From the IMG/VR virus record IMGVR_UViG_3300033141_000124, positions 32,001 through 96,000 of that record: a DNA stretch of 64,000 nucleotides; one strand, 5' to 3'. The notes below the pieces were generated by a model. It was not told the DNA's origin. It did not search any database and was given only the letters and a program-made list of their open reading frames with translations. Made by a program: the position numbers and the translations under genes. Below, piece after piece: positions 4,712 to 61,300 of this stretch. Numbering within the stretch: the stretch's first letter is position 1; the number at the start of each line of letters is the position of its first letter. This DNA comes from a virus.

Positions 4712-4979
4712 CTCTAATTATTGCAAATACATCACCAGCTTGAACTAATAAATGTTCTTCTCCTTCATGTTCCATTGGTGTTGGCATTGCATAATCAGCA
4801 TATTGAACTATATCTCCAACTTTTATTTCTTTTACTTCAGCACCTATTCCTACAACAGTTCCTTTGTATTCTTTCTTTTGTGCTATTTCAGGAATAATAA
4901 TTCCTCCTGCAGTTTTTGTTGCTTGTTTAGTTTTTTTTAATAATAGTTTATTACCTACCGGTATTACTTTTCTAGCCAT
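4704..4979 (-). CDS. groES: Co-chaperonin GroES (Cpn10)-like
   Basis: PVGNKLLLKK, mobile loop KTAGGIIIPE, GTVVGIG, IKVGDIVQY and C-terminal DVFAII; 91 aa. Confidence 0.92.
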   Translation of the reverse strand: MARKVIPVGNKLLLKKTKQATKTAGGIIIPEIAQKKEYKGTVVGIGAEVKEIKVGDIVQYADYAMPTPMEHEGEEHLLVQAGDVFAIIRDE

Positions 4980-4996
4980 ATTTGTTGATTTAATTT

Positions 4997-9023: not shown

Positions 9024-9338
9024 TTATTTAAATTTATATAAACTGTATTTGAGAGTGATTTCTTCACCCATTTCTATTTTACGGAGAGTTTTTAGTTTCT
9101 TGTATGTAAAATCTGCATCATCTTCTACTAATTCACAGTTAGGTTCATTATGATGATTTATAAATCCTCCTAGTGGAGTACGTATGTAATCATGTTGAAA
9201 CTCAGGATCATAGACATGAGTGATTCCCATATCTATTCCTGCAGGTATATCTTCTTTTGCAAAGATCCCAGCACCGTGTATGTCTGAAGGACCTATTGTA
9301 AGATAGTCTGGTAATGGTTTATAGGGTTTGTTTTCCAT
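9024..9338 (-). CDS. Minimal SET-domain protein (putative lysine methyltransferase)
   Basis: S-x-IHGAGIFAKEDI (GxG motif), GGFINHHNEPNC (NHSC-equivalent) and I-x-x-GEEITLKY (ELxFDY-equivalent). Confidence 0.9.
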   Translation of the reverse strand: MENKPYKPLPDYLTIGPSDIHGAGIFAKEDIPAGIDMGITHVYDPEFQHDYIRTPLGGFINHHNEPNCELVEDDADFTYKKLKTLRKIEMGEEITLKYSLYKFK

Positions 9339-9531
9339 AGGGCTTTGTTTTTTGTTTAAACTGTTCCCAAGTTTGTATTTGATCTTTGTGAGATCTGTTT
9401 CTATTATACTGATCTATGTACCATTGTTTGTCTCTTTCCATATATGTATCATCATCTATGAGAGGTGCATGCTTTATCTCATGAGCAATCCATACCCAGA
9501 GTAATATAAATACAACAATAACCCCTACCAT
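9319..9531 (-). CDS. Small protein with N-terminal transmembrane anchor
   Basis: MVGVIVVFILLWVWIAHE; 70 aa. Confidence 0.65.
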   Translation of the reverse strand: MVGVIVVFILLWVWIAHEIKHAPLIDDDTYMERDKQWYIDQYNRNRSHKDQIQTWEQFKQKTKPYGKQTL

Positions 9532-41918: not shown

Positions 41919-42383
41919 TTATTTATTACTAATTGACTTGAATTTTTCAGCTCCTCGTGAACCAAAATATGCTACATAGACAGTAATCAAAAGTGACTTG
42001 AGTAAATCTACCCAGCCAGCATCTATACCAAACTCTATGTTAAAACCATCTAACAAAATAAATATAACTAATGATACAGTTAAAAATATTAATGTCATTG
42101 GTCTTGTGTTTTTACTTAAATATGAATCTGATTGCATGTCTGATGCCCATCTCTTAGACACCTCTTGCATCTCAACCATATCCATTTCTAAAAGCTTTAA
42201 TGCTTTTTCTTTATCTTCTGGTGGTAACACAGCAGGGTCTTCCTTCTCTATAAGAGATTTAACCATACCAAGTACACCAGCATCTGGAAGTAAATCTCCA
42301 GCTACACCTAACAGACTAGGAACTTTCTCAACAAGAAATTTTCCCACTCTAGTGTCTTTAAATTTTTTCTTTCCTTTGCTCAT
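41919..42383 (-). CDS. Holin (GTA 3TM-like)
   Basis: RWASDMQSDSYLSKNTRPMTLIFL...AYFGSRGAEK with transmembrane helices. Confidence 0.8.
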   Translation of the reverse strand: MSKGKKKFKDTRVGKFLVEKVPSLLGVAGDLLPDAGVLGMVKSLIEKEDPAVLPPEDKEKALKLLEMDMVEMQEVSKRWASDMQSDSYLSKNTRPMTLIFLTVSLVIFILLDGFNIEFGIDAGWVDLLKSLLITVYVAYFGSRGAEKFKSISNK

Positions 42384-42385
42384 AA

Positions 42386-42793
42386 TTATTTTTTCTTACT
42401 TGCAGTTACTTTACTTTCACCTTTAGTTACTGTAACATCTGTGTCAGTAACATCTACCTGCATTGGATCATCTTCTTTATCAGATAATTCCTTGATTAGA
42501 CTTTTAATTATTTCTAGTTCTGGCTTCTCTTCTTTTTCTACGGCTCCTACTATATGTTGTAGTATACCTATCATAGCCATTGCTGCAGTAGAAACCAAAC
42601 CAATAACAGCAGTTAAAGCACCACCCTCTAAAAACTGAGAACTGATTACACCTATAATTACTAATACTGTTATGTAATTTATAGCATGTTTACCTAAATG
42701 TTTAGATGCTATTTCTTTAGCTGTACTTTGAGCTTCAATTTTATCAATCTCAATCTTTGCTAATACCTCTTCTTTTAATTTTTCTTTACTCAT
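42386..42793 (-). CDS. Two-TM membrane protein
   Basis: YITVLVIIGVIS and ALTAVIGLVSTAAMAMIGIL. Confidence 0.7.
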   Translation of the reverse strand: MSKEKLKEEVLAKIEIDKIEAQSTAKEIASKHLGKHAINYITVLVIIGVISSQFLEGGALTAVIGLVSTAAMAMIGILQHIVGAVEKEEKPELEIIKSLIKELSDKEDDPMQVDVTDTDVTVTKGESKVTASKKK

Positions 42794-43921: not shown

Positions 43922-44052
43922 CTTCCTTGTCCTTTATACAATTTTTTATAGTTTCTACTACTCTTTACTTTAGATGTTCTTGTTTTAGCATGAATACCTG
44001 GCCTCTTAGCTCTCCTTGGTCTTTCATAACTAGTATTTAAAACTCTAGCCAT
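43918..44052 (-). CDS. 44-aa Arg/Lys-rich protein (not in ORF track)
   Basis: MARVLNTSYERPRRAKRPGIHAKTRTSKVKSSRNYKKLYKGQGR. Confidence 0.75.
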   Translation of the reverse strand: MARVLNTSYERPRRAKRPGIHAKTRTSKVKSSRNYKKLYKGQGR

Positions 44053-44296
44053 TCTTCTTTTTTCTTCCTCTTCTAGGTTTACCTGCTATTGCATCATCTA
44101 TATCTCCAAGTTGATTACCTACTTCTTTAATTGCTCTTCCTACATCTGCTAACTCTTCTGCTGTTAGCTTATATCTCTTTTTTATCTCCTTTAATGTAGC
44201 TACTGCTTTTTCATCTAAAGAAGTTCTTGACCATACTGCTCTCCAATAATCTTGAAGGCTATAAGTCCATAATACATTTACAATTTTTTTAAACAT
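44045..44296 (-). CDS. Hypothetical coiled-coil protein with basic tail
   Basis: 83 aa, ending GKPRRGRKKKNG. Confidence 0.7.
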   Translation of the reverse strand: MFKKIVNVLWTYSLQDYWRAVWSRTSLDEKAVATLKEIKKRYKLTAEELADVGRAIKEVGNQLGDIDDAIAGKPRRGRKKKNG

Positions 44297-44315: not shown

Positions 44316-44410
44316 CTATAATAATAATATACAAATTTTGCTGGACTCAATCAAATTTAATAGTATATTTGTTGTTTTGCTGACCCCGGCATATATAAAT
44401 AATATACAAA
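44316..44410 (-). promoter_or_regulatory. Two putative late promoters GTATATT-N5-TATA (44316-44335 and 44391-44410)
   Basis: TTTGTATATTATTATTATAG and TTTGTATATTATTTATATAT upstream of the ATG at 44296. Confidence 0.55.
44364..44371 (+). promoter_or_regulatory. Bacteroidota -7 element TATATTTG upstream of nrdB
   Basis: TAnnTTTG with an upstream TTTG at 44337-44340. Confidence 0.5.
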
Positions 44411-44564: not shown

Positions 44565-45542
44565 ATGAAAGATATATTCAGACCCAGACTAAACATTTTA
44601 CCTTATGAATATCCACAGCTCTTAGCTTATAAAGATGCCATTAGACATTCTTATTGGATAGATACAGAATTCAATTTTACAGAAGATATACAAGACTTTA
44701 AAGTAACTATCTCTGATGAAGAGCGTGATATAATTAAGAAGACTATGCTTGCAATTGCACAGATAGAAGTAAATGTAAAAACATTTTGGGCTGATATATA
44801 TAAAAGAATGTCTATAACTGAAATAGGTGATGTAGGTATGACCTTTGCAGAATCTGAAGTAAGACATAAAGATGCATATGCTAGACTCCTGAGGATCTTA
44901 GGCTTAGAAAGTGATTTTAAAAAGGTGATTGATGTACCAGCTATCAAAGGTAGAATTAATTACTTACAAAAGTATTTAGATGGATCACGTAGTAGAGATA
45001 ATAAAATGTATACTAAGTCTGTTCTATTGTTCTCTCTATTCATAGAGCATGTTAGTTTGTTTAGCCAGTTCTTAATTATGATGAGCTTTAACAAAGAAAG
45101 AAATGTACTCAAGGGTATATCTAATGTTGTTGAGGCTACCAGTAAAGAAGAAGAAATACATGGCAACTTTGGAGCAGAACTTATTAATATAATCAAGGAA
45201 GAAAACCCTAAATGGTTTGATGAAGACTTTGAAAAGTTGATTCATTCTGCATGTAAAAAAGCATATGAAGCTGAGTGTGGTATACTAGATTGGATATTTG
45301 AGAAAGGGGAATTAGAATTTTTACCAAAGAAAACTATAAAGAATTTTATAAAGAATAGATTTAACAATTCTCTTGAAAAAATTGGGATGCCTGCTTTATT
45401 TATTGTAGATTTGGAAATGCTTGAATCAACAGAGTGGTTTGATATTGAAATCACCGGTACTAAAGAGGGAGACTTCTTCTACAAGAAAAGTGTAGACTAC
45501 AATAAGAAAAGCAAAAGCATAACTGAAGATGATCTATTTTAA
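44565..45542 (+). CDS. nrdB: Ribonucleotide reductase class I beta subunit (subclass Id-like)
   Basis: QIEVNVKTFW, ESEVRHKDAY, IEHVSLFSQF, KEEEIH, DFF. Confidence 0.95.
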   Translation: MKDIFRPRLNILPYEYPQLLAYKDAIRHSYWIDTEFNFTEDIQDFKVTISDEERDIIKKTMLAIAQIEVNVKTFWADIYKRMSITEIGDVGMTFAESEVRHKDAYARLLRILGLESDFKKVIDVPAIKGRINYLQKYLDGSRSRDNKMYTKSVLLFSLFIEHVSLFSQFLIMMSFNKERNVLKGISNVVEATSKEEEIHGNFGAELINIIKEENPKWFDEDFEKLIHSACKKAYEAECGILDWIFEKGELEFLPKKTIKNFIKNRFNNSLEKIGMPALFIVDLEMLESTEWFDIEITGTKEGDFFYKKSVDYNKKSKSITEDDLF

Positions 45543-45544
45543 TT

Positions 45545-47170
45545 ATGGAATATAAAAAATACTACTGGCTTAATGAGAATAGTAGAACCTTCTTATCTAG
45601 AGGGTACATTAGTGAAGAACCAGAACAGAGAATAAAAGATATAGCTAATACTGCAGAGAAGTATTTACACATGCCTGGGTTTGCTGAGAAGTTTGAAAAC
45701 TATATGTCTAAAGGTTATTATAGTTTATCTACACCGGTATGGATAAATTTTGGAAAACAAAAAGGTTTACCTATCAGCTGTTATGGTTCTAACATAGATG
45801 ATAACTTAGATAGTATACTAAATGCAGGACGTGAGATAGGAATGATGTCTAAGTATGGCGGAGGTACAAGTTGTTTTTTAGGTAATATAAGACCTAGAGG
45901 ATCTGAGATATCTACAGGAGGCTTTGCAGATGGTCCTGTTCACTATGCTAGAATATATGACACAGTGGTTGATGTATGTAAACAGTCTGAAGCAAGACGT
46001 GGTGCATGTGCAGCATACTTACCAGTAGAGCATCCTGATATAGAAGAGTTCTTAGATATTGGAACAGAAGGTAATCCTATACAAAATCTACAGTATGGTA
46101 TTACTGTATCTGATGCATGGCTAAGATCTATGAAAGCAGGGAGTAAAGAAAAACGTAAGATCTGGGCTAAAGTAATTCAAAGAAGATCTGAGTTTGGTTA
46201 CCCTTACATAATGTTTAAAGATAACTCTAATAACAATACACCATACAAAGAAATAGGTATGGAGATAACAGCATCTAACTTATGTTCTGAAATTCAACTT
46301 CCTACAGACACATACAATTCTTTTGTGTGCTGTCTAGGATCTATAAATTTATTACACTGGGATGAGATTATAAAGACTGATGCTATAGAAACATATGTGT
46401 TCTTTTTAAATGCTGTGATGGATGAGTTTATAAGAAAATCAGAAGTTAAAGCTGGCCTCAAAAGAGCATTTAATTTTGCTAGCAAACATAGAGCTATTGG
46501 TCTAGGTGTATTAGGATATCATAGTTTGTTTCAATCAAAGCTAATTGAGTTTGAGTCTCTTAGAGCTAAGCAGCTAAACAATCATATATTTAAAACTTTA
46601 AAAGAAGTATCTGAAGAAGCTTCTAGATGGTTATATGAACACAGAGGATATAGGTCATTAAGAGAAGGGTATGCCAACACTACTCTAATGGCTATTGCTC
46701 CTACTAAATCTAGTAGTTTTATACATGGTGCTGTCTCTATGGGTATAGAACCTATCAAGTCAAATTACTTTATCAAGGATCTAGCAAAGTCTAAAACAGT
46801 TTATAAGAATCCATTCTTAGAACAGGAGTTAGATAAGTATGGGTTAAATACTAAAAAGACCTGGGACAGCATTCTTAAGAAAGATGGTTCTGTACAACAT
46901 CTTAACTTTCCAACAAAAGAAGTATTCAAATCATTTATTGAGATATCACCAAAAGAACTTGTACTACAAGCTGCACAAAGACAAAAGTATATTGATCAAT
47001 CACAGTCATTAAACTTAATGATTGACCCGTCAGTGCCAGCTAAAGATATTAATAAACTGTATTTATATGCCCATGAAGAAGGTGTAAAAACTTTATACTA
47101 TCAGTTTAGTATTAGTTCTGCTCAAGATTTTGCTAGGAATATATTAGAGTGTGCTAGTTGTGAAGGTTAA
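45545..47170 (+). CDS. nrdA: Ribonucleotide reductase class I alpha subunit (compact, no ATP cone)
   Basis: PISCY, GGGT, RRGA, SNLCSEI, IAPTKSSS, IDQSQSLN, KTLYY, C-terminal CASCEG. Confidence 0.96.
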   Translation: MEYKKYYWLNENSRTFLSRGYISEEPEQRIKDIANTAEKYLHMPGFAEKFENYMSKGYYSLSTPVWINFGKQKGLPISCYGSNIDDNLDSILNAGREIGMMSKYGGGTSCFLGNIRPRGSEISTGGFADGPVHYARIYDTVVDVCKQSEARRGACAAYLPVEHPDIEEFLDIGTEGNPIQNLQYGITVSDAWLRSMKAGSKEKRKIWAKVIQRRSEFGYPYIMFKDNSNNNTPYKEIGMEITASNLCSEIQLPTDTYNSFVCCLGSINLLHWDEIIKTDAIETYVFFLNAVMDEFIRKSEVKAGLKRAFNFASKHRAIGLGVLGYHSLFQSKLIEFESLRAKQLNNHIFKTLKEVSEEASRWLYEHRGYRSLREGYANTTLMAIAPTKSSSFIHGAVSMGIEPIKSNYFIKDLAKSKTVYKNPFLEQELDKYGLNTKKTWDSILKKDGSVQHLNFPTKEVFKSFIEISPKELVLQAAQRQKYIDQSQSLNLMIDPSVPAKDINKLYLYAHEEGVKTLYYQFSISSAQDFARNILECASCEG

Positions 47171-47577
47171 AATGCTGACTCTTCAATTACAACATTGATA
47201 GCATCTTTTAATTCAGATAATCCAACAGGACATTCTAGATCTAAGCCTGCCTTAAATGCCTTTTCTTTTGTTCCTTCTTTGAATATAATGATTGTAGGGG
47301 CCATCCTAACTCTGTACTCTTTCTTTGCTGATGGTGCTTTTGCTATATCAACTCTATAGTATTTTACACCGTCCATATCATCTATCTGTTTCCAGTCTGA
47401 AAAAGAATTGTCTTGATTAAACTCTGCCCAAAACTCTATTATTATGATATCTTGTGAATCGTCAAACCCTCCTTGCTCATTGATAATATCTTGGAAGTTA
47501 CTATCATCTATCCACTCTTGAGCAGCAAGGTTTGTCGTGAATAGTAAAAATATTATAAATAAAATTATTTTTTTCAT
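47167..47577 (-). CDS. Exported thioredoxin-fold protein lacking CxxC
   Basis: Signal peptide (LAA|QE); IIIEFWAEFN in place of WAxWCxxC; YYRVDI, YRVRMAPTIIIFKEG. Confidence 0.8.
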   Translation of the reverse strand: MKKIILFIIFLLFTTNLAAQEWIDDSNFQDIINEQGGFDDSQDIIIIEFWAEFNQDNSFSDWKQIDDMDGVKYYRVDIAKAPSAKKEYRVRMAPTIIIFKEGTKEKAFKAGLDLECPVGLSELKDAINVVIEESAF

Positions 47578-47580
47578 GGT

Positions 47581-47868
47581 CTACTTTTTAGTAAGATCAT
47601 AGATCCTCTCCTCCATTTTTTCAAACTTATCTAGGAGCATTTCTACATCTTCTTGGGTATCCATAATTGTTTGTCTAATTAACTCATCTTTGAGGTCGTA
47701 CTCAACTCTGTCAATCACTGGTGCTGGGAGTTCCATAGCTTGAGCTATATCTGCTTGTAACGTAAACCACATAGTAGATAAGGAGATTACAAATCCTACT
47801 ATTAGCCCTATTGTTTTTAAATCTAATGTTACTTTTGTTTCTTCTCCTATTTGAGGTGGTTGTGCCAT
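47581..47868 (-). CDS. Single-pass membrane protein with C-terminal coiled coil
   Basis: TIGLIVGFVISLSTMWFTL followed by heptad-like TQEDVEMLLDKFEKMEERIYDL. Confidence 0.75.
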   Translation of the reverse strand: MAQPPQIGEETKVTLDLKTIGLIVGFVISLSTMWFTLQADIAQAMELPAPVIDRVEYDLKDELIRQTIMDTQEDVEMLLDKFEKMEERIYDLTKK

Positions 47869-47872
47869 GATC

Positions 47873-48223
47873 TTAATTTTTATTTATGTTAATGGATGGT
47901 TTAGTTCCTGAGTTACCACCATTTGAATTAGTATTTGAATTGTTGTTTGGTCTAGGACTATTAGCTGGTCTATTAGGTAATACAACAGTTGGTCTAACAA
48001 CTGGTCTAGGATTCCAATACATATAGTTATTCCAATTATAATATGGTTGAGTCCTATATATAACTTCTGTTCTGTATCTAGGTCTTAGTTTATCTATATC
48101 CACAGCTACGGTATCACCAGCAGCTGTTATTGCTAATACTTTATCATACTGCACTATAGGTTGATAAGAGCTACATGCTCCTACAAATAATACTAGTATT
48201 AATATAGATATAATTTTTTTCAT
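47873..48223 (-). CDS. Lipoprotein with Pro/Asn-rich tail
   Basis: MKKIISILILVLFVGAC lipobox; RPVVRPTVVLPNRPANSPRPNNNSNTNSNGGNSG. Confidence 0.75.
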   Translation of the reverse strand: MKKIISILILVLFVGACSSYQPIVQYDKVLAITAAGDTVAVDIDKLRPRYRTEVIYRTQPYYNWNNYMYWNPRPVVRPTVVLPNRPANSPRPNNNSNTNSNGGNSGTKPSININKN

Positions 48224-49431
48224 TATTTAAATGTAAAGTTTAGTCCAAAGCTTGTTTGAAATAATTCACTATCCCACATCTTACTATATTCTCCTTCTGC
48301 AAAGATGCCAATATGTTTGCTAATCTTCCACCCAAAACTTACACCAGCAGAATAGTCTTCCCACTGCTCTAACTCAGAGTCTTGTACTAGTCCACCTTTA
48401 CCCCAGTTGTTTCTGTTTAAATAAGACAGTGCCTCATCACCTTGTATATACTTATGATATGGTAGTATATAATTAGCATATGCATGCAACCAGAACTTAC
48501 TCTTATAGTGATAGAAATCTAAACCTACAATAGGTGCAATCTCACCAAAAGCATCTAGCAAGTCCCATGCTTCTCTGTTAAATCTATTCATCAACTCAGT
48601 AAAAATAGTCTCTCTAAACTGAAGATCTGTATAAGCTACAATCTCTCCATCAGGATCTATCCAATACCAGTCAGAAGTTTCATTACCTAGCTCATCTTCT
48701 TGTGTGTAATATATATCATCATATCCATACTCAAAACCTAATTCATACCAATAGTTAACTGGATACTCTTGTCCATTTATAATCTGTGTTTCATTTAACC
48801 ATATTTCAATTGGGTTATATCCATAAGCACGGTCATGAGTACGGTAGATTGCACCAGCTGATATACTAAACTTCTCTCCTAATGGTAATCTTGCTCTTAG
48901 TTCAGCTGATTGGTAATCTAAATTTATCTTTCCAACCTCTCTACTCTCTACTTTTGCTATATGATATTTACCAGTATGTTTTAAAAAGTATCTGTGGTTG
49001 TCAAACATTTCTCCTCTCCATCTTTCTTTCTCAATGTGGAATTGATACTCTAGTCCATCTATTGCTGATGTTGGTGCAGTAAATGCTAGTTGTTGTTCTG
49101 TCCCATCATACCAGTTTCTAGGCTTTCTTTCATAGTTAAATCTTGCTAGCTTACGTATACCAAAGCCATAACGGTAATCAAAAGCATAGTCAGGAGTGTT
49201 ATCTACTACATCTGGTATAGAATATAAACCTCCATCTGGATTAGTTCTTACAAAAAATGTTTGTTCTCTGGCCTCAATAGAATTATTAATATCTCCTGCT
49301 CCATACACAGTACCGTATTTCAAGAAGTCTTGATATATAGACTTGAAGAATTTGCCTTTCTCTTCTTGATCTTGAGCTGAAACAATATTAAAAAAGAATA
49401 TACATACCAGTACACTTAAATATCTTTTCAT
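48223..49431 (-). CDS. Putative outer-membrane beta-barrel protein
   Basis: Signal peptide (VSA|QDQ); aromatic-rich alternating strands; C-terminal FQTSFGLNFTFK resembling a beta-signal. Confidence 0.72.
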   Translation of the reverse strand: MKRYLSVLVCIFFFNIVSAQDQEEKGKFFKSIYQDFLKYGTVYGAGDINNSIEAREQTFFVRTNPDGGLYSIPDVVDNTPDYAFDYRYGFGIRKLARFNYERKPRNWYDGTEQQLAFTAPTSAIDGLEYQFHIEKERWRGEMFDNHRYFLKHTGKYHIAKVESREVGKINLDYQSAELRARLPLGEKFSISAGAIYRTHDRAYGYNPIEIWLNETQIINGQEYPVNYWYELGFEYGYDDIYYTQEDELGNETSDWYWIDPDGEIVAYTDLQFRETIFTELMNRFNREAWDLLDAFGEIAPIVGLDFYHYKSKFWLHAYANYILPYHKYIQGDEALSYLNRNNWGKGGLVQDSELEQWEDYSAGVSFGWKISKHIGIFAEGEYSKMWDSELFQTSFGLNFTFK

Positions 49432-49471
49432 ATTTGAATTTAATTTAATTAATAAGATAGTAAGTTGGTTT

Positions 49472-49491
49472 GTATAATAATAATATACAAA
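49472..49491 (-). promoter_or_regulatory. Putative late promoter GTATATT-N5-TATA (copy 4)
   Basis: TTTGTATATTATTATTATAC about 40 nt upstream of the ATG at 49431. Confidence 0.55.
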
Positions 49492-49494
49492 AAA

Positions 49495-52400
49495 TTAGTT
49501 ATTTCCCAGATAGAAATTATCCATTTTTTCAAATGTAGTCCATTTTTGTAGAGTATATAATATTGGTAAGGCATCTTTCCACTGCTTATATACTTTCAAT
49601 TGTCCTTTTCTAGGTCTGTTCTGATAAACTATATCTTTATTTTGGTAAAATTCTTGGTCTGATTCTCTAGATATCCAGTTATAAGGTGTCTGTACAGAAA
49701 GCGTTAATGCTTCTGTTAGTGCTCCTAATGTTCTTGTGGATGCTATAGGACGCTCTAAGAAACCTGATGCTTCACCCATACCAAAGAATGGAACAAATAA
49801 AATTAATTCTGTATAAACTCTATCTGTTTGATACTTGCTCCAGTTCTTAAGCTTCTTTACCCATAGATCATCATCTTCATCATCATCCCAGGCTTTGTCT
49901 AACATTGAAAATAATAAAAGAGACATTATAATAAATGATGCTTCAGCCATGGTTCTATTTACATTCTTAATTTTATTATCTATTCTTTGAGCTATACTTG
50001 CTGCTCCCATTGGGCTACCATCTTCATTCATTGGCCCTTGAGGTGAGCTGTTCATGTCTGCTTTCAGTTCATCTTTATACTCACTTATAATATTACGTAA
50101 GTCTAATCTACCTTTGACTATATTCTTTTTTAAATATGCTGCCAGCTTCCAAGTACTTGCATATCTTCCTTCCATCCAACCTAAGGTACTATTAAAGTAT
50201 TCACCTTGATATCTTGCTCTTAATGCTGGTGGTAACCATTTTTTAAATTGGAATAATAGCTTACCTAACCAGAAAGATTGGACTACTGTTCTATCCATTC
50301 TAGCATAGTTACCATGCACTTCTTTATTTACATCTCTAATTTTGTTTCTTATATCTGCATATATTTTAGATCCCTGATCATTTAATGCATCATTTTCAAT
50401 TGGGACTTTGATTCCTGTTTTGTACTCAGGTATTATTGTATCCCACTTTTTGTCATAGTATATTTTTCCTGTAATAGGATTAAAGTTTGCTGCATCTATA
50501 AGATTAGAAGATTCTCCAGTCTTAGAGTCTATCACCTGAACATCTCCAAGTATACCAGTTCCTATTTTAGTTTGTACTGCATATTCAAAACCATCCTGAA
50601 ATAGATAACCTATGCTCATACCTCTTTGAAATCTATTTTGTTGGCCTCTAGTATTATCCATACCAGATTCACGTATATCTACATCTGCATCCATCATTCT
50701 CCAATACTCACCTAATCCTTCATATTTATTATTAGCTTGATCTGGTTTGTAACTACGCTCTTTAAGTTCTTTACCAGATATAAATGCTCCAGTACTACCA
50801 CCTATAGCTCCACCTACAGCAGTACCAAGTGGACCAGCAACAGCTGTTCCTATAACAGATCCTATAACACCACCTTTAATTGCACCAACTGGTGCTTCTT
50901 CACTACCAAGAAATATATCTGCAGCTTCAGTTGCCACTGCTCCAGTTCTTTTTACTATACCTGGTAATGCTTCTTTAGTATATAATGCTTCAGCTCTCAG
51001 ATAAGACCCTCTAGTTATAAATCTATTTGCTACACCTTCAATTGCGTTGTTGATTTGTGCAATTGCTAAGTTGTTTATGTTACCAAATATATTCCATGCA
51101 ACATAGGATTGAGATGACCATGTAATTAAACCCATAGCAAACTTATCCCAAAAGCCTTTGCTTATTTCATCATTATCATAGAATACCATCTTGGCCCATT
51201 TATGTGCCCTTGCTACAACATTAGCTTGATCTTTTCCTAGTCCTTGTCTACCTTTAAGATTAAATTTCTCTGGAATAATTTTATCTAAAACTCCTGTAAA
51301 CTTATTTCCTCCTGGCTCTATATATTCTCTCTTCTCTATAACTTTAATTAAAGCATTTATAGTTCCTTCTATTTCTCCTAAAGCTGCAAACTTTTCTGCC
51401 ATATCAGAGAACATAAGTAAACTTGAACCTAAATCTGTACTTACTTCACCTAGCGTAGGTTGTGATCTTTGCTTTTGTACTTTAGATTCTAACAAAGCTC
51501 TTTCTTTTGTGTACTGTGCAAGACCAATTTTTTTATTTTTATAATCTAGTTTTAGTTGTTTTATTTGATTTTCAAGCTTAGTAAGTCTTTCTTCAACTCT
51601 TGGATTACCTGTAAACATTATAGGAAGAGTGTCTACCATCCTTCCCTGCTCATCTATAATAACAGTCTTTTGTTCAGTAGTTGAAGTAAAAAGATTTTTT
51701 ATTGATCTTTGTGTCTTAGCCCATAGTCTTATAAATAAACCACCAGCAGGATCAGATTTTAAATTAGTTGCTAAGTTGTCTCTAACTACAGGTATCTTAC
51801 CTAACATTTGATTTCTTACATCTCTAGGTAATAAGTTAAGTAATGCATTTGGTCCATCAGCATACTCTTCAATAAACATATCATATACTTCTCTACGTGC
51901 TTGAGCTAATGCATCATTAACCTTGGGCTCCATAATGTCTATATACTTTTGACTTCTCATATCCATACCGTCTGCAGCTTGCTCTCTTATCTCTACAAAC
52001 TCTGGCCTTACAAATGAAAACTTAGCATCTAGTTTTACTTGTCCGGTAGGTACACCATTCTTTCTAAATGCTTTGGTGTATCTAGTATCTTCATAGTACT
52101 GAGCTCTATACATATTATAGTCAGTGTCACTTAAACCTCTACGCTTCTGCCACATCTTACCATTCCATACCTCATTCTTTGCTCTTGCTGCTTTAAACTC
52201 TTCACTATATCTATGGAAATCTCCATCAACAGGTCTTCCGTCAACAGTTTTTTCTGCTCTCATAAAGTCAGAAAACTCTCTCTTTACATCTGCAAGTTTT
52301 TTATTATACTCTATATCTTTACGTCCTTGCTCACTCTTTTGTGCTTCAACTAAATTATATACCGGAGCATAAACAAAAGGTACACCATTAGAATCTAATT

Positions 52401-55341
52401 GTTTTAGGCGTATTTCTTGTTTCATTTTTTCATACTGAGGCCCTATCTTCTTAACATATGCATCCTCTGATAAAGATCCATCCTCCTCAAAGTTAAGCAT
52501 AAAGTCATACCGTCTATTAGCTTTTACATTTGGTTGTAACTTTCTTAATTTTTCAAGAGGTTCAACTATTCTTTTTTGTCTATTTTCTCTTCTTTGTAAG
52601 TAGTCTAGCCATTTTCTTTTATAAACTTTATCTAATGTTGCTAATAATGCATCTCTACCAGAAGATACATCTCTTAAAAATCTTTCACCCATTCCAATAT
52701 CAGGTACAACTGTTAACAGTGCTTCCATATCTGCAATTGTAAATGTCATCTGAGAATGAGACTGAAGTACAGTATTTTCCCCTTCATCAAAACCACTTTG
52801 TACATTTGCTACAATTACATCAGCAACAAAGTCAAACAAAGCTCTATTTATTAAACCTTGTCTACCATTCTCTCTTTCGGATGGAGGGCCTAATAATTCA
52901 TTAACTATACCTTCAATGTTATTAATTAAATACCTTTGAGTTGCATTTAACTCTTCATAACCTGGTTCTTTTAAAATATATAATCCCTCAAAAGTTTTTA
53001 AATACTTTTCAAAATTTGAAAGATAATCTGCAAATTCTGGCTTTGCAAAATTATTAGGATCAATTATATATTCTTTATATTCTTTCATTTGTCTGAAAGC
53101 ATCCTGCAATAACTGAGTATATGCTACAGAAACATCTTGGTTGTTTTTAGGATCTGCTAATGCAAAGTTTATAATAGACAAAGTGTTATCTATTTGGCTT
53201 ATCATTCCTGGTTTTGATCTATCAATAAATATATTATTCTTAGCCTTATTAAGCATTTCTTTTTTAGATATAACTCTTGTTTTGTATTCATCTATAGCAC
53301 CTAATAAATAACTTAAAGGTTGATTCTCATATGGATCAATTTGAGTTACTTCTCCTAGATCATTATCATCAGTTCTTGCATCATAAAGTTGACCATCTAA
53401 TCCGCCTTGTTCAAACTCTTTGTCTAGTTGTTCACCGGCTAAATCATATAAATTTTCTGCAATTAATAAATCTACTAGATATTTATTCTGACTTATAGGT
53501 CTTGGAATTATATTTATTCCGTCTTGCTCTATCTTAAACGTACTTGCTTCAAGGTTATCTTCTTGCATCTCTACTTTATATCCTTGGTTTTCTACCATTC
53601 TTCTTAGTAGATTTACTTCAAGCATGTCTAATACATCCTGGCTCAGACTTGTTATGTTATTGTTTCCTAATAAAGATTCAGATGGTATCTTAACAATTTT
53701 ATTTCCATCTCCTTTATCTATAGATAGTTTAGATATTCTAATCTTACCAAACTTATCTATCATTACTAAATCAGCAATACCCGCTATCTTAGACTTAGGA
53801 TCAGAAAAAACTACATTAGTTACTAGTACATCTCCTTCTTGTCTAAGGGTTGCTATAGAGTCATTTATATTATTAAATACTTCTTCAGAAATACTTATAT
53901 CACTTTGTATATCTTGATAAGTCTGATTTAGTGCTATAGCATCTAATACTTTTCTATAATCTATACTAAGAGAGTCCTTAAATGTATCTCTATTTCCTAT
54001 TGCATCACCAGTTGATAAGTATCTTAAGTTACTATTTAGATCATAAAAACTATTATTAGAATTATTATATACTACTAAATTATTTACAAATGTGCTAGGA
54101 TTAGTACCTGCCAAAGTATCTGATTCATTTTTAGATTCTTGTACTGCTTGAAACAAATTTTTAACTACTATACGCTGTTGATCAGTAGAAGCTACAGCAT
54201 TAGCTTGATTTACTATTGCTTGTTTGCCATCAGATAAACTATATCTAACTCTTCCATTTGGTTTTCTACCTATCTCAAATCTAATACCATTGGTATTTAA
54301 CAGTTTTGCTATGTCAGACATGCTAGCATTTGGATTAATATTAGATACAGGTATTCTTCTTCCCGTTAGATATTGGTTGAAGTTTTGTATCATATTTCTA
54401 AACCACTCTAATAATCTTCCTATTACATCTTTAAATGATTGTGTAGGAGCCTCTTCATATTCTTTATTGAAGTGTCTACTCAATGCTTGAGTTACTATCT
54501 CCATTTCTCTTTCTTCAGCATTCACTCTTCTTTTAGAGTTATAAGCATCCTCTATTTGCTGTGTCATCTCAGGAAAGTTTGTCTTGGCTTCTTTTAATAA
54601 GCTTTCAAACAATGGTATATTATCAACCTTAACCGCCTCTATAAAGGGGTGTAATACTTCTTCTATTGCTGTTTCATCAGTAACTCTACCTTTGACAAGC
54701 ACTACTTCATTATTAACAAAGTAAGAGTTTATGTTGGCAAATGGAACTTTTGCTTTTTGCCACTTAGGTAAGTTATCATATTGTTTTTGTGCTTGAGTTG
54801 GTGATAAAAGTTTTACATTAACACCAGGGAATAGTCTAACTAAATGTTTAACTACATGCCTTGCTCTAGTCATGTCCCATGATCTAGATTTCTCAATCAT
54901 ATCTTTAGCAGAAAACAAAGATGCATCAACAGTAACAGCAAAAGTCTTAGGTGTCTTGTCTAGTTTTATTGAAGACTCAGGTAAATTATTTATTTCTAAA
55001 TATCTTTTCAGTCTTTTGATATTAGATTTAACTAGATCATCACTAGGTCTAATAGCATCAACTCCTTGCTCTGTATTATTAATATAGTAAGCACCTTGAA
55101 AACTATGAATAATTCTTTCTCTTCTTAGATTATTTAATAATGACTCACCAAATTCTCTTTGCTTTAAATTATGTAAAGCTCTTTTTTCTGAAGCATAGTT
55201 TCTTGCTTCTGTTACTGTTGGAATAGCCTCACTACCTGTAGCTCGTTGCCAGCTTTGAATTACGTTAGTTGTCATCAAATCTGTTTTATAAACTGCTAGT
55301 AAAGCTTTATACTTAACTGTATTTTTATTAGGACACTTCAT
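49495..55341 (-). CDS. Large internal virion (cargo/ejection) protein of crAss-like phages
   Basis: 1948 aa directly after the vRNAP gene; N-terminal CPN; degenerate zincin-like EEVLHP; VHGNY...LFQFKKWL; C-terminal hydrophobic helices. Confidence 0.8.
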   Translation of the reverse strand: MKCPNKNTVKYKALLAVYKTDLMTTNVIQSWQRATGSEAIPTVTEARNYASEKRALHNLKQREFGESLLNNLRRERIIHSFQGAYYINNTEQGVDAIRPSDDLVKSNIKRLKRYLEINNLPESSIKLDKTPKTFAVTVDASLFSAKDMIEKSRSWDMTRARHVVKHLVRLFPGVNVKLLSPTQAQKQYDNLPKWQKAKVPFANINSYFVNNEVVLVKGRVTDETAIEEVLHPFIEAVKVDNIPLFESLLKEAKTNFPEMTQQIEDAYNSKRRVNAEEREMEIVTQALSRHFNKEYEEAPTQSFKDVIGRLLEWFRNMIQNFNQYLTGRRIPVSNINPNASMSDIAKLLNTNGIRFEIGRKPNGRVRYSLSDGKQAIVNQANAVASTDQQRIVVKNLFQAVQESKNESDTLAGTNPSTFVNNLVVYNNSNNSFYDLNSNLRYLSTGDAIGNRDTFKDSLSIDYRKVLDAIALNQTYQDIQSDISISEEVFNNINDSIATLRQEGDVLVTNVVFSDPKSKIAGIADLVMIDKFGKIRISKLSIDKGDGNKIVKIPSESLLGNNNITSLSQDVLDMLEVNLLRRMVENQGYKVEMQEDNLEASTFKIEQDGINIIPRPISQNKYLVDLLIAENLYDLAGEQLDKEFEQGGLDGQLYDARTDDNDLGEVTQIDPYENQPLSYLLGAIDEYKTRVISKKEMLNKAKNNIFIDRSKPGMISQIDNTLSIINFALADPKNNQDVSVAYTQLLQDAFRQMKEYKEYIIDPNNFAKPEFADYLSNFEKYLKTFEGLYILKEPGYEELNATQRYLINNIEGIVNELLGPPSERENGRQGLINRALFDFVADVIVANVQSGFDEGENTVLQSHSQMTFTIADMEALLTVVPDIGMGERFLRDVSSGRDALLATLDKVYKRKWLDYLQRRENRQKRIVEPLEKLRKLQPNVKANRRYDFMLNFEEDGSLSEDAYVKKIGPQYEKMKQEIRLKQLDSNGVPFVYAPVYNLVEAQKSEQGRKDIEYNKKLADVKREFSDFMRAEKTVDGRPVDGDFHRYSEEFKAARAKNEVWNGKMWQKRRGLSDTDYNMYRAQYYEDTRYTKAFRKNGVPTGQVKLDAKFSFVRPEFVEIREQAADGMDMRSQKYIDIMEPKVNDALAQARREVYDMFIEEYADGPNALLNLLPRDVRNQMLGKIPVVRDNLATNLKSDPAGGLFIRLWAKTQRSIKNLFTSTTEQKTVIIDEQGRMVDTLPIMFTGNPRVEERLTKLENQIKQLKLDYKNKKIGLAQYTKERALLESKVQKQRSQPTLGEVSTDLGSSLLMFSDMAEKFAALGEIEGTINALIKVIEKREYIEPGGNKFTGVLDKIIPEKFNLKGRQGLGKDQANVVARAHKWAKMVFYDNDEISKGFWDKFAMGLITWSSQSYVAWNIFGNINNLAIAQINNAIEGVANRFITRGSYLRAEALYTKEALPGIVKRTGAVATEAADIFLGSEEAPVGAIKGGVIGSVIGTAVAGPLGTAVGGAIGGSTGAFISGKELKERSYKPDQANNKYEGLGEYWRMMDADVDIRESGMDNTRGQQNRFQRGMSIGYLFQDGFEYAVQTKIGTGILGDVQVIDSKTGESSNLIDAANFNPITGKIYYDKKWDTIIPEYKTGIKVPIENDALNDQGSKIYADIRNKIRDVNKEVHGNYARMDRTVVQSFWLGKLLFQFKKWLPPALRARYQGEYFNSTLGWMEGRYASTWKLAAYLKKNIVKGRLDLRNIISEYKDELKADMNSSPQGPMNEDGSPMGAASIAQRIDNKIKNVNRTMAEASFIIMSLLLFSMLDKAWDDDEDDDLWVKKLKNWSKYQTDRVYTELILFVPFFGMGEASGFLERPIASTRTLGALTEALTLSVQTPYNWISRESDQEFYQNKDIVYQNRPRKGQLKVYKQWKDALPILYTLQKWTTFEKMDNFYLGNN

Positions 55342-58300
55342 TATAAATTACATCTTTTAATTTGTTCTATTAGATCTTCAGGCTTTGACCAAAAAGAATT
55401 AGGATTATTTTCATACAAATCTATTAAATCTTCTAGAGTATTCACATTATTTTGCTCTTTAAATGCTTCTACTTGCATTGAAAATTCACCAGACTCAATA
55501 TTATTATCCCAGAATTCTGTTATTTCAGGATAACCAACTGCTGGATCTGTCTCACTTAATAAGTCTAATGTCAATTGTACACTTTCAGTTATAGGAGGTA
55601 CAATATTATCATCTATGATTCCAACTTCTTCTATACCTAACTCATCTGTTGCAGCTTGAAAATCTGCCTCTAAGCTAGCCAGCTTATTTACATCATCTAT
55701 ATTTACTTGCGTACCATCTGCAGTTTCAATAATTATATCTTCTCCATTATAAACTGTGTTGAAAGAAGGATTACTTAAAGCCTCTTCTTGTATATCCTGC
55801 TCAATTGCAGCATCTGCAAAGTTCTGACTCATGTCTAACCCCTCATCATTTTTAATTTGTGAATTAGACTTTCTTAAATCTTTAGTCAATGGTACATCAC
55901 CAAATATAAAACCTATAGCATTCTGAAGAGGAGAACCTTTTATGTCTACAACTTTAGCATCTGTGTAATATTCATTAGATTGTACTAATTGTTGTGCTGT
56001 CTCTATACCTTCAATATCTTCTTCTTGTAATCTTCTATAGGTAATTGATTTTCTTTCACCAGTTATAGGATCTGTAGGGCTTAATGTTTTATATACAATA
56101 GGCATATCCTCTACCCTATTGTCTTGTTTCTTTATTGCTAATAAATCTTGAGAAGAAGCTGCAGATAAATAATTTCTAATAAACTCTCCTCCTACCATTG
56201 GTATGTTATCTAGATTCTGAGGTATAGATTGTAAGTAGTCTTCTAATACATATGGGCTTAAAGCTTGTATCAAAGAACCAGGAGCTAATTGCATAGCATC
56301 TTTTACAAAAATATATGCTATAATCTTTCTAGCATCTTTTCTTGTATCTAAGTTATTATACAATTTGTTAAATGAAGTTTGTAAATCAGACATTTGAATT
56401 CTATTCAATCTTCTCCAACTATTTGATCTTACTAAATTTATACCAGCAAAGTTCTGTTTTGCTTGTGCTGGTAAAGTAGTTATAAAGTTTTCTAAAAAGA
56501 AATTTCCAGGATCTGTTTTCTTAAGCCTTTCTACTGCACTTATAATAGTATTTAATTTATTATCTGCTGAAGGATAAATTAAATTATTATTCATGCCCTC
56601 TACAGAGAATGCATCACTATCTAATTTTTGATTTATATAATTTTGTATAGTAAAGTATGCTAATATATCTTTTCTAACTTTAGATCTTAAATTAGGATTA
56701 AACTCTAGTGCCTGTTGATTTAACTCTCCAAGCAAATTAATCTCAGATACTTTAAATTTATTAGTTCTAGTTAAGAAAACGTTTGGTAATAAATCATCAT
56801 AAAGATTATCAAACATTTTACGCAACTCTCCTAAATATGTATTATTAAATATTGAACCAAACTGTAACAATGGTAATTCATCTCTTCCCTCTTCCAGCAT
56901 GTCATTTATATCAGATTTTCTCTTGTCTAATCTTAACATGTCTTTTCCTAAACCATTATTTAAACTTAGTACACTATTTAATTTAGCAGTAAAATCACTT
57001 ATCCGCATTATATTTTTAAATACACTTAAGATACCTTTCTGTTGACCAGCAGTCAAATTACTCATATTATCTACACCAGCTATTAGTATTTCTTGTGTAG
57101 GCTCTAAAGCTTTTACTTTTTCAAGCTCTGCCAGCTGATCATCTACACGTCCTTTTATACCTTTAGTAGCTATATCACTATTAGCTATTTCTGTATATTG
57201 TTGTTGGATAAACTGATTATTTAATAACAATAAAGATGTATTTAATGGTACGCCTATAGCTATCATATTAGTAAGCATACGTGTAGCATGTGAGTTTAAA
57301 CCCAACTTAGCAACAAAATATTCTTTAGCATTGTCAGTCATCATAGTAACCACAGAAGATATAATATCTTGTTTTCTAGCTCCATCTTTAGTTTTAGAAC
57401 CCTTAAATGTACTATAGAATTCCCCATCTAAATTAAATGATTGTCTATCAAGAAGAATTCCTCTTTGTACAATAAGACTTAAATACAAGTTTGGACTTAC
57501 AACAGACCCAATAGATGCACCCTTATTATTAGTGAATGCTATTGTTTGACCAGCCATGTCATCTATATTTTGTAAGTCAACTATCTCTCTTGATTTTAGA
57601 GAAGGAACAAAAGCTTCACTTGAAAGAGTTTCCCATGCTGCTTTCATAATATCTAAGTTAGCTGGACTATATGCAATCATATCACCAGATGTCATTTCCT
57701 TATTGCCTACTAACTCTCTTCTGATATCTACTATTTCATTATTTATAGGTGCATCATATGGTGCATAACCATTCTCAGCTATAAACTCATTGAATTGTTG
57801 TTTTGTTACTGGTAGACTTAATGCTTGTAAAGCACCAATTGATTCTCTACTAAACCCTGCTGTCTCAGCAGATGTATCTTCTATATCTGTTAATGAATCT
57901 TCAATTAAAGATCCTTGCAAGTTATACAGTTCTAATGCTGAGTTATATATTGTACCTACTTCTTTTACTTCTCTGTTTATATAATTTACATAATCCTCAT
58001 AGTTATTTCCATACTCTATAAACTCTTTATCTCTTACATAAAAATCTTTTCTTTGAGAATATCCAACATCAATATCAAAATCTGATCCTGCTATTTCTAC
58101 TAACTCATCTGCAAACATAGCAGAAGATCCATAGAAAGCAGGTAAAAAGTCAACCATTCTTACACCCATAGCAGAATGTTTATCCTGACTAGGTATACGT
58201 ACTGTAAACATATCACTTACTACTTTTGGAATTGATTGATCAGTGTCTTGTAAACTATAAACAGACTCAAACTGTGGAGGGTAGATACCTTCTGAATATT

Positions 58301-61300
58301 TATTTCCTGTTGCCTTACCACTATCATCATACTCTGGCATATTATATCTTAAACGGTCAAGTATTACAATCCCTTCTTTAGGAATATCTATACCTACCAA
58401 ATCTTCTGCAGTACGTGTATCAACTGGTATATTTGTTCTGTCAACCACACTTGCTCTTAAAACTTCTTGTCTTTGTGGAATACCGTTACTGTCTACACTA
58501 AACACACGTCTATAAATTTGATAACCAAAAGATGATACTAATGCAAAAGAAGTACCAGGTACTTTCTCTTGAAATACATCTTGACTAAAGTATGATAAGA
58601 ATAATTGCTCAAACTTAGCAATTGTATATGGGTTATTTAAATTATACTTTGGTTGATTAAACTTATCTAAACTAAAGAACTCAATTATATTTGAATTAAC
58701 CTGTGATGCTTTTAATGAATTGACTGCATACTTACTAAATAAAACAGGATTAAATTTATTATTCTCATCAAATGATAAATTTCTCTTATTAAAGAACTTC
58801 ATTCTTTGTCTCTGTGATATTAGATCATTATATCTTTCTATCTTTTTACTTAACCTTGGAGATTGTTCATTAGTAATTAATGTTTTCATTTGACTCAACT
58901 CAGTAATCTTTTTCTTATTAGAAGGATTTATTTGTTGAAGTCTCATAAATTGTGCAGATAAAGTTGAACTCTCCTGTGAGAAACCTGGTTCAGGCATTTT
59001 TAATTCTTGATAAGGAATTATATCTTGCTTTAACATTTTAATTGCACTTAATGGTGCCGCAATAGAAACAGTTTCAGTACCCTCTTCTAAAGCTTCTAGT
59101 CTAACTCTTAAGTTATGTAAAGAAACTGCATTAGGTTTTGCTACAAATAAGCCATCTGCATTTCTCTTTGATGTAAGTTCAGGAGTAAGTACAAAGGCTG
59201 ACATCTTTAAGAATGTTTCTCCATCAAAATAAACAAGCTTCTTAGAGTTAATCATCCCTTGTTGATCAATAAGATTTTGTATCTCAGACCATTCTAATCT
59301 TTCACCTTGTTGAACTTTGTCTAATGCTTGAGCTTGTGCATCTGATAGCATACCAAACCCAAAGAAGAAATGTCTAAATGCTTTTACAGTAATCCACATT
59401 TGTGCATCTGCATTATCAATAGATTGTCCACTTATACTTGATATAGACGTTGGTTCACTAATAGTAATTAAATTTATTTTATCTGTTGCATGATTAATAC
59501 CTTTCTGTGGATCTATAAAAGGTGTATATGCTGATAATCCAGCACCATTCTGTGCCTTAGCTCTTTTTGTTTTATCATTAAAATTCTTTAAAGTTTTTGC
59601 TTGATCTCCTAATAGTAATTCATTTAAAGATTTTACATTAATTGCATTACTTAAAAATATTTGTTTCAAGTTATACTCTTCATCATTTTGTCTTAGATTA
59701 TATAAAGCATCAACACCATTATCAATAGCATTTTCATTTAAACCAAATCTAATTCTTTTATCTATCTTTTCTCTTACATTATTAGAATCAATTAAATCTT
59801 TAAATAGTAAATATCTTTCACCTAATTTTTTTCTTAATTGATTTTTAAATTGTGTTACACTAAGACCAGAGTTTTTAAGTGCTTGTTCAAAAGATATAGG
59901 CTCACCTTTAGCTTGACCCTCTAACGCTACTTTTGTTGCAGGCTCTAGAAGGTAATCATTATTAGCAAAAGTAAATCCTCTTGGAGTTACTTCAGAATCT
60001 TCTAAATTATATCCTTGTACACTTTGTGTTAACTCATCTGCATTTCTTTCTCTAACAATTCTATTATACTCATTTTTTACAAAATCATAGAATACATCTA
60101 AAGCTTCAGAAGTTATTACATCTTTTCCTTTGACCTTTTCTATAGCTTTTATAATAGGCAATGTAGTAAGATCCCCAGTGTTTGAAGATTCTATAACTCT
60201 ATTAAGTACAGGAGATAATGCTACTTCTGTTTCTATACCAGATACCGGGTCCTTTACTAATACAAAACTACTAACGTTATCTGTAAGATAGTTTAAATTA
60301 GCTAGATAAAGATTTATATTACTTATAATAAACTCTCCTGGAGTAAATTTACCAAAGTCTGTTGTCTTAAGTGCACTACTTCTATTTGGATCAAGCTCAG
60401 TGCTTAATTGATTTAATATTTTAGTACCAGATACTCTTGATATTTTAATCTGTTGATTATCTGCCAAAGCATTAAATGCTTGAGAGTTTAGTAAATAATT
60501 ATTATTTAAGAAAGGATCTTCTTTAAGTCTATTTCTTTCCTCTACAGAATTTAATTTTTTTGTTTTAACCAAATGATAAGTAGGCTGTTGATGTGAATTT
60601 ACTAAATCTCCATTAGAGTTTTTAAATACACTAGCCCCAACAGTTTCATCTAACACAGCATTATTTAGTGCTATTGTTTTAATTCTTGAAGCTGCTCCTT
60701 CAATACCTTTATCAAAAGGATCTTGACCAGCTGCAATTAAAGATTGTAAAGCTTGTAGTTGATCATATGTAATAGGTTCTAAATTAGGATAGAAAGCTAA
60801 TTCTGTTTCTTGATTCTTAAATTTTTTGACTCTAGATTTTAATAAACTAAACCTCATATATCCTACACTCACTCTAAATCCTATTGCTTCATATAAGTCT
60901 CTTGATAAATCTTTAGCTAATTTATTTACAGTTTTATTTTGAATTTTCTCATTAGCTTGACGTAATGAGTTTTTAACTTTGGCTAAAGTCTTAAGTGCTC
61001 TAGTTTTCTTTCTAGGGTCATCTTGCCACTCTTGAAGTTTACTAGTATAAGCTTCACTCCAATTATCTACTTGTGTAGTTGCGTCATCTCTTTGAGATGC
61101 TGAATGAATTAATGTGTTACCATTATCATCTCTTTGTTGGAAATACCACTCAACTCTAAAATTAGTAAATGCTTTTACTACTTTATTAAAGAAATCAGGA
61201 TTCTTAAGTTGTAGAGGTAATTCATTTATTACTTCATCCTTTTCATTTAAAGGTATAATACCAGCATCTTCAAATATACTTGACACTACAGCAGCTGTAT

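Follow-up and report, generated by a model that had tools for sequence, protein, structure and literature searches.

By what means do phages without recognisable spanins get out through the outer membrane of their host? This question is raised by a cluster of small genes in a 64,000-nucleotide stretch of viral DNA (the window), which corresponds to bases 32001-96000 of the 110.5-kb IMG/VR virus record IMGVR_UViG_3300033141_000124, rated 96% complete. The source is an uncultured marine crAss-like phage of Bacteroidota, whose large terminase is ~26% identical to Crassvirales large terminases, and matching DNA has been found by several studies in marine sediment and hydrothermal-vent metagenomes. 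A first-pass annotation, made from the letters of the window, had described the cluster as a self-contained four-gene cell-envelope operon, and had listed superinfection exclusion, receptor blocking, nutrient or metal uptake and an unusual outer-membrane lysis step as its possible functions. Comparison with relatives changes the unit from four genes to three, coding for a predicted outer-membrane beta-barrel, a transmembrane (TM) coiled-coil protein and a protein of thioredoxin (Trx) fold, with the fourth gene, for a lipoprotein, being a variable insert; of the functions listed, the outer-membrane lysis step is the one favoured by gene context. The four open reading frames (ORFs), as given by the ORF list, are the following:

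48223-49431, minus strand: gene of the 402-aa barrel protein
47873-48223, minus strand: gene of the 116-aa lipoprotein
47581-47868, minus strand: gene of the 95-aa TM coiled-coil protein
47167-47577, minus strand: gene of the 136-aa Trx protein

In this order, the first two genes overlap by 1 nt (TAATG), and gaps of 4 nt and 3 nt separate the next ones. The packing had been described correctly, with its coordinates, its TAATG overlap and its gaps of 4 nt or less, and the sequence features quoted for the products (signal peptides, FGLNFTFK, VGAC, Pro/Asn tail, TM helix, WAEFN) are all present.

The cohesion of the three genes has been established in about 240 fetched viral loci, which make up three samples: a barrel scan, a second barrel subfamily and a reciprocal scan anchored on the TM gene. 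The barrel scan of IMG/VR yielded 78 loci of 51-84% identity, 74 of them with a complete barrel ORF, and in this close subfamily TM and Trx genes are present in 72 of the 74 loci, the two exceptions lying at contig ends. In the second subfamily (~32% identical), both genes accompany the barrel gene in 63/80 loci, and 15 of the 17 misses have short flanks. The TM-anchored sample, formed by the best 80 of at least 574 matched stretches, contains the complete trio in 72/80, and its eight misses are all contig ends. A contig end or a short flank accounts for every locus without a trio member except two. Across the ~240 loci the TM gene is always followed directly by the Trx gene, and three orders have been found in relatives, namely barrel-TM-Trx, TM-Trx-barrel and TM-Trx-barrel-TM-Trx. 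The last of these is seen in seven loci, where two divergent TM-Trx pairs surround one barrel gene and are followed by endolysin and holin genes; therefore, the TM-Trx pair duplicates as a unit. The co-conservation supposed for all four genes holds for barrel, TM and Trx genes over the ~240 loci and fails for the lipoprotein, which has relatives in four. The conserved unit of these marine Bacteroidota phages consists of three genes, and their linkage looks obligate. Homologues of the barrel form 2303 clusters at 90% identity, all unnamed, and all those detected are viral or metagenomic; relatives of the TM protein in the viral contigs of IMG/VR number at least 574. In a cultured-phage collection, no match was found for two barrel queries (as DNA and as protein) or for the TM-Trx stretch (as DNA), and viral-contig scans with P0061 and P0039 gave no match. 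Among 185,579 species genomes, a barrel homologue occurs in five contigs of metagenome-assembled genomes (MAGs) and in 0 isolate genomes. These five contigs bear the trio, and the MAGs that contain them carry the labels Woesearchaeota, Maricaulis, Arcobacter and Bacteroidetes; mis-binning of phage contigs is the probable explanation. A literature search returned no paper describing such a barrel/TM/Trx module.

The fourth product, with its VGAC lipobox and its Tyr/Asn/Pro-rich tail, has a different distribution. Its relatives in the fetched loci are placed after Trx or endolysin genes, and a viral-contig scan with the protein found no relative. Two PHROG families are matched at the level of the signal peptide, phrog_1119 (Cor; E 0.013, residues 1-65) and phrog_3198 (Rz-like; E 0.017, residues 2-28). 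Lipobox ORFs of any kind, as detected by a crude script, represent unrelated families and lie near the trio in about one quarter of the first 78 loci; in most loci none was found within 2.5 kb of the trio, including all cassettes of the order TM-Trx-barrel-endolysin-holin. This distribution points to an optional accessory of this phage, outside the core unit. It also bears on the possibility that the 95-aa and 116-aa proteins are an ordinary two-component spanin, with the barrel and Trx genes as unrelated neighbours. In the window, an N-terminal TM coiled coil does adjoin a Pro-rich lipoprotein, and in three of the four loci relatives of the lipoprotein stand just after the endolysin gene. However, the scarcity of lipoprotein genes described above contradicts this explanation, the 95-aa protein is strictly linked to Trx and barrel instead, and neither its periplasmic part nor the mature lipoprotein contains the typical cysteine, two-component spanins typically carrying periplasmic cysteines for intermolecular disulfides (Kongari et al. 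2018, PMC6139136); an ordinary spanin pair is accordingly considered very improbable. In seven other contexts, lipoprotein genes with acidic residues after the lipobox Cys (GCEKEEE, GCSKEEE) lie in or next to the trio; this stretch resembles the Bacteroidota surface-lipoprotein export signal, and the genes may be exclusion morons.

What surrounds the trio in relatives is a set of lysis genes. The neighbouring endolysin is an M15_3 peptidase (PF08291; phrog_894 endolysin), an Amidase_2 protein (PF01510; phrog_822) or a phrog_33083-type endolysin, and a phrog_3427 holin accompanies the endolysin genes. In the three samples, an endolysin and/or a holin gene was found within the fetched flank of 57/74, 59/80 and 57/80 loci. 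All of the 136 endolysin genes and 85 of the 88 holin genes share the strand of the trio. Three unrelated endolysin families are involved (M15_3 in 90 loci, phrog_33083-like in 36, Amidase_2 in 10), and 86 of the fetched loci have a holin homologue flanking the trio. In one group, the commonest order is TM-Trx-barrel-endolysin-holin, the genes being separated by a few bases. The trio belongs to a larger region of lysis genes; the supposed self-containment does not survive, as in most relatives the three genes are contiguous and co-directional with endolysin and holin genes and, in the window, a 12-mer, TTTGTATATTAT, is shared with the holin block. The lysis genes of this genome are dispersed, the holin gene lying 5 kb downstream of the trio behind ribonucleotide reductase (RNR) genes and the amidase gene 39 kb off:

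44565-47170, plus strand: RNR beta and alpha genes, between the Trx gene and p83 and convergent to the Trx gene
44045-44296, minus strand: p83, 83 aa, first gene of the downstream late block
42386-42793, minus strand: protein of 135 aa with two TM segments (2-TM protein), adjoining the holin gene
41919-42383, minus strand: holin, 154 aa (phrog_3427, E 4.1e-17)
7694-8626, minus strand: endolysin candidate, 310 aa, with a peptidoglycan-binding domain and Amidase_2

The holin family is annotated as such in Nonlabens phage P12024L. The 310-aa protein matches PF01510 with 39.8 bits, above the cut-off, as well as several endolysin/amidase PHROGs; the M15_3 and phrog_33083 endolysin families were not found in this genome, where Amidase_2 is the only one present. 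Homologues of the 2-TM protein lie between the barrel and TM genes in two relatives. The p83 protein, which gives weak matches of helix-turn-helix type only, is encoded directly after the Trx gene in six relatives. In the window, the Trx gene overlaps by 4 nt the convergent RNR alpha gene, and two relatives carry RNR genes on the other side of the trio. Because p83 directly follows Trx in relatives and the side of the RNR genes varies, the RNR pair looks like a mobile insert splitting the lysis region.

A link between the trio and the holin-bearing block is also suggested by short intergenic elements:

49470-49491, minus strand: promoter-like box TTTGTATATTATTATTATACAA, within the 63 nt that separate a 1948-aa ORF from the barrel gene
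49473-49488, minus strand: GTATATTATTATTATA, upstream of the barrel gene
49480-49491, 44324-44335 and 44399-44410, minus strand: three exact copies of the 12-mer in the window, all intergenic

The GTATATT-N5-TATA motif pointed out by the first-pass annotation exists, but as a loose pattern it is not above chance (11 matches in the window against 7.6 expected), and the longer 12-mer is more informative. One copy precedes the barrel gene and two precede p83, that is, the holin-bearing block; the 110.5-kb genome has six copies, all on the minus strand, and the element is partly palindromic (TTGTATA...TATACAA). Close relatives keep a related box, TATATTAT..TATA.ACCAAC, before the barrel gene. The 12-mer probably acts as a promoter or operator of the phage; its position before both the barrel gene and p83 suggests a common regulation of the trio and the holin-bearing block. 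A scan for sigma-70 promoters and terminators gave results not above those of shuffles, with a model that is ill-suited to Bacteroidota.

Each product of the trio is predicted to occupy a different layer of the envelope. The 402-aa protein begins with a signal peptide, MKRYLSVLVCIFFFNIVSA, followed by QDQ after the cleavage site, and ends in FGLNFTFK; the cleavage sites of this protein and of the Trx protein were read from the sequence. In the barrel homologues, the C-terminus has a conserved G-[LIV]-N-[YF]-x-[FIL] with a hydrophobic residue last or next to last. A first AlphaFold model, from 35 homologues, reached a predicted local distance difference test score (pLDDT) of 69.5; a second one (AF2), from 70 homologues down to 25% identity, reached a pLDDT of 80.6 and a predicted template modelling score of 0.73, and both have the same topology. 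Of the top 50 Foldseek matches of the first model, nearly all are outer-membrane or organelle beta-barrels. By exhaustive structural comparison (VIA), the second model matches EstA (Z 12.3), KdgM (12.0), NanC (11.7) and NalP (11.4), followed by Tsx (10.6), OMPLA (10.4), LpxR (9.9), pOmpT (9.4) and PagL (8.6), the range Z 12.3-10.1 covering EstA, KdgM, NanC, NalP, Tsx, OMPLA and OpcA. In most strands a hydrophobic face alternates with a polar face (dyad pattern). The protein is thus modelled as a 12-stranded outer-membrane beta-barrel and not as a soluble protein, in agreement with the assignment first made from the sequence. With KdgM/NanC, EstA/NalP, OMPLA and LpxR it shares fold and strand number (Z 9.9-12.3 over 154-200 aligned residues), and, like other 12-stranded barrels, it begins with a signal peptide and has a beta-signal in its C-terminal strand; unlike them, it could be placed in no sequence family, and it adds a 95-residue insert and a conserved 31-residue loop predicted to be periplasmic. 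No sequence match was found for it in Pfam, PHROG, NCBIfam or PDB. Its look-alikes in a protein atlas are viral clusters without names; among the named ones, outer-membrane families come nearest (0.92-0.93) and serve as leads only.

The orientation of the barrel was derived by counting strands backwards from the C-terminal strand, whose end must be periplasmic. In this topology, the insert 200-294 (95 residues, acidic and aromatic) and the loops 50-84 and 323-358 would be extracellular, and the helix 26-37 and the loop 95-125 would face the periplasm. The insert, with 22 acidic and 20 aromatic residues, is the largest conserved element of the protein; the loop 95-125 is strongly conserved as well (GIRKxARFxYExK...YDGTE) and is modelled with low confidence. 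Seven residues (His316, His326, Ser336, Asp305, Asp359, Glu128 and Glu379) recur in 63-70 of 70 homologues. They speak for an outer-membrane lipid hydrolase in the manner of OMPLA, LpxR or PagL, which would dissolve the outer membrane at lysis and be held inactive by the TM and Trx proteins until the peptidoglycan is gone, and four 12-stranded enzymes (OMPLA, LpxR, pOmpT and PagL) do figure among the structural neighbours. However, the non-enzymatic barrels (EstA translocator, KdgM, NanC, NalP, Tsx) score equally or higher, and the phage protein has no sequence similarity to any such enzyme, which makes a hydrolase rather improbable.

The predicted outward-facing domain of the barrel, large and conserved, also brings into play superinfection exclusion, receptor masking or protection of the progeny, with a barrel that would sit in the outer membrane and block or mimic a receptor, to prevent injection by later phages or by released progeny that encounter debris of the cell. 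Phage outer-membrane proteins and lipoproteins are often exclusion factors, such as lambda Lom, T5 Llp and phi80 Cor, and the seven loci with lipoprotein genes resembling surface-exported ones, in or next to the trio, fit such a role. Exclusion genes are usually fast-evolving morons, whereas the trio is conserved with 50-84% identity over many lineages and ~25-30% in the second subfamily. Furthermore, masking needs no inner-membrane coiled coil or periplasmic Trx and leaves the steady placement in lysis cassettes unexplained, and PADLOC has no match for the barrel, the TM protein or the lipoprotein. The three proteins were likewise without a match in NCBIfam. Lom, Cor and Llp are, like the barrel, phage proteins addressed to the host outer membrane, but each of these is encoded alone, with no partner in the inner membrane or the periplasm, and the only link to them is the phrog_1119 match of the lipoprotein at signal-peptide level. 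An exclusion function for the trio is therefore regarded as unlikely.

The other two members would lie beneath the barrel. The 136-aa protein carries a signal peptide, with LAA before and QEW after the predicted cleavage site, and matches the thioredoxin family PF00085 with 31.7 bits (cut-off 23.5; E 1.6e-7); its profile matches PDB thioredoxins with E values of 1e-10 to 1e-13, down to 3e-13. The thioredoxin fold assigned earlier is upheld by both comparisons. The active site reads EFWAEFN, with WAEFN in place of WCGPC, and WAEFN or a variant of it replaces CxxC in all 19 aligned homologues (CxxC in 0/19), while P94-T95, the presumed cis-Pro loop, does not vary among the aligned sequences. By these profiles, the protein is a true thioredoxin homologue, exported and free of cysteine. 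It resembles PF00085 thioredoxins in fold profile and cis-Pro loop, and differs from them in the absence of CxxC, in its Bacteroidota-type signal peptide and in a gene that is always paired with the TM coiled-coil gene. The glutamine noticed at position +1 recurs in 63/70 barrel and 19/19 Trx homologues. Since Gln after signal cleavage is the Q-rule of Bacteroidota (PMC5837995), its presence after the predicted sites in both families makes a member of this phylum very probably the host. The 95-aa protein has a single hydrophobic segment (residues 20-37), an invariant K18 in its N-terminal stub and a tail of ~58 aa, acidic, helical and charged, whose PDB matches are of coiled-coil type only. 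Lysine is found only on the N-terminal side, which implies a bitopic inner-membrane protein with N-in/C-out orientation and its tail in the periplasm.

The reading preferred here, to which a probability of roughly one half is given, is that the trio performs or controls the last step of lysis, that through the outer membrane, as a spanin analogue. It is suggested by the presence of one component for each envelope layer (barrel, exported Trx and bitopic helix protein) and by an obligate-looking linkage of the three genes with co-directional lysis genes adjoining. In addition, holin and endolysin are already accounted for and most cassettes are without a lipoprotein spanin candidate; in the window, the 12-mer is common to the barrel gene and the p83 block, and the placement of p83 and the 2-TM gene in relatives agrees with it. 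No recognisable spanin has been found in ~13% of the surveyed phages of Gram-negative hosts (PMC6139136), and the lysis of flavobacterial phages is poorly annotated (PMC8776804); therefore, a vacant role exists. According to the mechanism proposed, the barrel, TM and Trx proteins would be produced late, together with holin and endolysin. The 402-aa protein would be exported by Sec and then inserted by the beta-barrel assembly machinery (BAM) as a 12-stranded barrel, and the 95-aa protein would span the inner membrane and extend its acidic, helical tail into the periplasm. The redox-dead Trx would serve there as an adaptor, its cis-Pro groove linking the tail to the periplasmic loop and helix of the barrel. 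Once the endolysin has cleared the peptidoglycan, the tethered complex would destabilise or open the outer membrane. The analysis supplies the folds, the strict linkage of the three genes, the pairing of TM with Trx and the adjacency of lysis genes; from these we infer the late timing, the contacts between the proteins, the part of Trx as adaptor, the action on the outer membrane and the trans-envelope complex itself.

Compared with the known solutions to this step, the trio has both likenesses and differences. It resembles Rz/Rz1 of lambda in an inner-membrane protein with N-terminal TM helix and helical tail, in a partner anchored in the outer membrane, and in its location in a lysis cassette co-directional with holin and endolysin genes (for the trio, in relatives). 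In contrast with Rz/Rz1, the partner is a 402-aa barrel instead of a small lipoprotein, a third component of Trx fold is obligatory, conserved periplasmic cysteine is lacking, the tail measures only ~58 aa, and sequence similarity was not found. Another solution is that of the unimolecular spanin (u-spanin), such as T1 gp11, also found in lysis cassettes, in which one protein has both a lipobox and a C-terminal TM helix; the two features occur together in none of the four operon proteins (0/4) and only in a separate 61-aa ORF. Finally, disruptin gp28 of phage phiKT, a spanin-less phage, disrupts the outer membrane in a non-spanin manner (bioRxiv 10.1101/515445); gp28 is a single small cationic peptide, with no barrel, anchor, Trx fold or homology to the trio. 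More tentatively, at somewhat less than even odds, the trio might constitute a third machinery for breaching the outer membrane besides spanins and disruptin, widespread in marine Bacteroidota phages without recognisable spanins.

Several points weigh against a role in lysis. The argument for it is one of gene association, and in this genome and its nearest relatives the endolysin gene is not adjacent to the trio. For an inner-membrane spanin, the tail of the 95-aa protein (~58 aa) is short, and it contains no cysteine. According to the strand count, the barrel would have its largest conserved element outside the cell, which suits a surface role, such as the masking of a receptor or sensing, more than a bridge through the periplasm. 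Two other loci are of concern:

10541-10726, minus strand: 61-aa micro-lipoprotein with lipobox LLSSC and C-terminal TM helix, the architecture of a u-spanin
4145-5309 of NC_018272.1: locus of Nonlabens phage P12024L, where gp13 immediately precedes the genes for an M15 endolysin and a phrog_3427-type holin

The linker of the micro-lipoprotein, of ~25 aa, contains CC, whereas periplasmic cysteine occurs in 0/58 surveyed u-spanins (PMC6139136). Its relatives, recognised by a C..PSW[ED]R motif, are found between Trx and endolysin genes in L040 (positions 7897-8106) and in three further loci; therefore, another candidate for the outer-membrane step exists. The cultured P12024L, for its part, has the same holin and an M15 endolysin, and is annotated without barrel or Trx. 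Its gp13 (88 aa, N-terminal TM coiled coil, C-terminal CxxC) is analogous to the 95-aa protein, and homology between the TM family and gp13 was not detected by hhalign (12% probability).

The same phage is of relevance for a different explanation, in which the trio would be a sensor for lysis timing or lysis inhibition, the barrel sensing superinfection or cell density and the Trx and coiled-coil proteins relaying the signal to the holin. The closest parallel is found in T4, where RI/RIII act on holin T. A sensor would account for the predicted extracellular position of the conserved element 200-294, for the very frequent adjacency of trio and holin, for the resemblance of the 95-aa protein to small single-TM holin partners, and for the retention in P12024L of an analogous coiled-coil gene by the same holin without barrel or Trx. 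Nevertheless, no homology to any antiholin was detected, the holin is linked to the trio less strictly than the three genes are to one another, and we know of no outer-membrane barrel in any lysis-inhibition system; a sensor of this kind is thus viewed as doubtful.

The remaining features of the region lie outside the trio and its partners:

49495-55341, minus strand: giant ORF of 1948 aa, directly upstream of the barrel gene
55341-63998, minus strand: giant ORF of at least 2828 aa, upstream of the 1948-aa ORF
9319-9531, minus strand: 70-aa ORF with N-terminal TM helix, between the micro-lipoprotein and the amidase endolysin

The 1948-aa product has a Gly-zipper segment at residues 1485-1523 and weak tape-measure matches, and the larger one has no PHROG match at E <= 1e-5; the two may be ejected cargo proteins or virion RNA polymerase proteins of crAss type. 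A further small membrane protein associated with lysis may be the product of the 70-aa ORF. The inserted lipoprotein, the interruption by RNR genes, the sharing of the 12-mer and the micro-lipoprotein encoded elsewhere are peculiar to this window.

The significance of the trio lies in its being a concrete, clonable candidate for an undescribed way of opening the host outer membrane. The module is abundant: its barrel clusters at 90% identity exceed 2300, and the TM gene has at least 574 relatives in IMG/VR. Bacteroidota is a dominant phylum in the sea and in the gut, and lysis by its phages has barely been characterised (PMC8776804). It would also be a case of a virus encoding its own BAM substrate, with a thioredoxin fold possibly reused as a non-redox adaptor. 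Even if the lysis reading were wrong, a complex of a virulent phage spanning the three layers of the envelope would still represent new biology of the interaction between phage and host.

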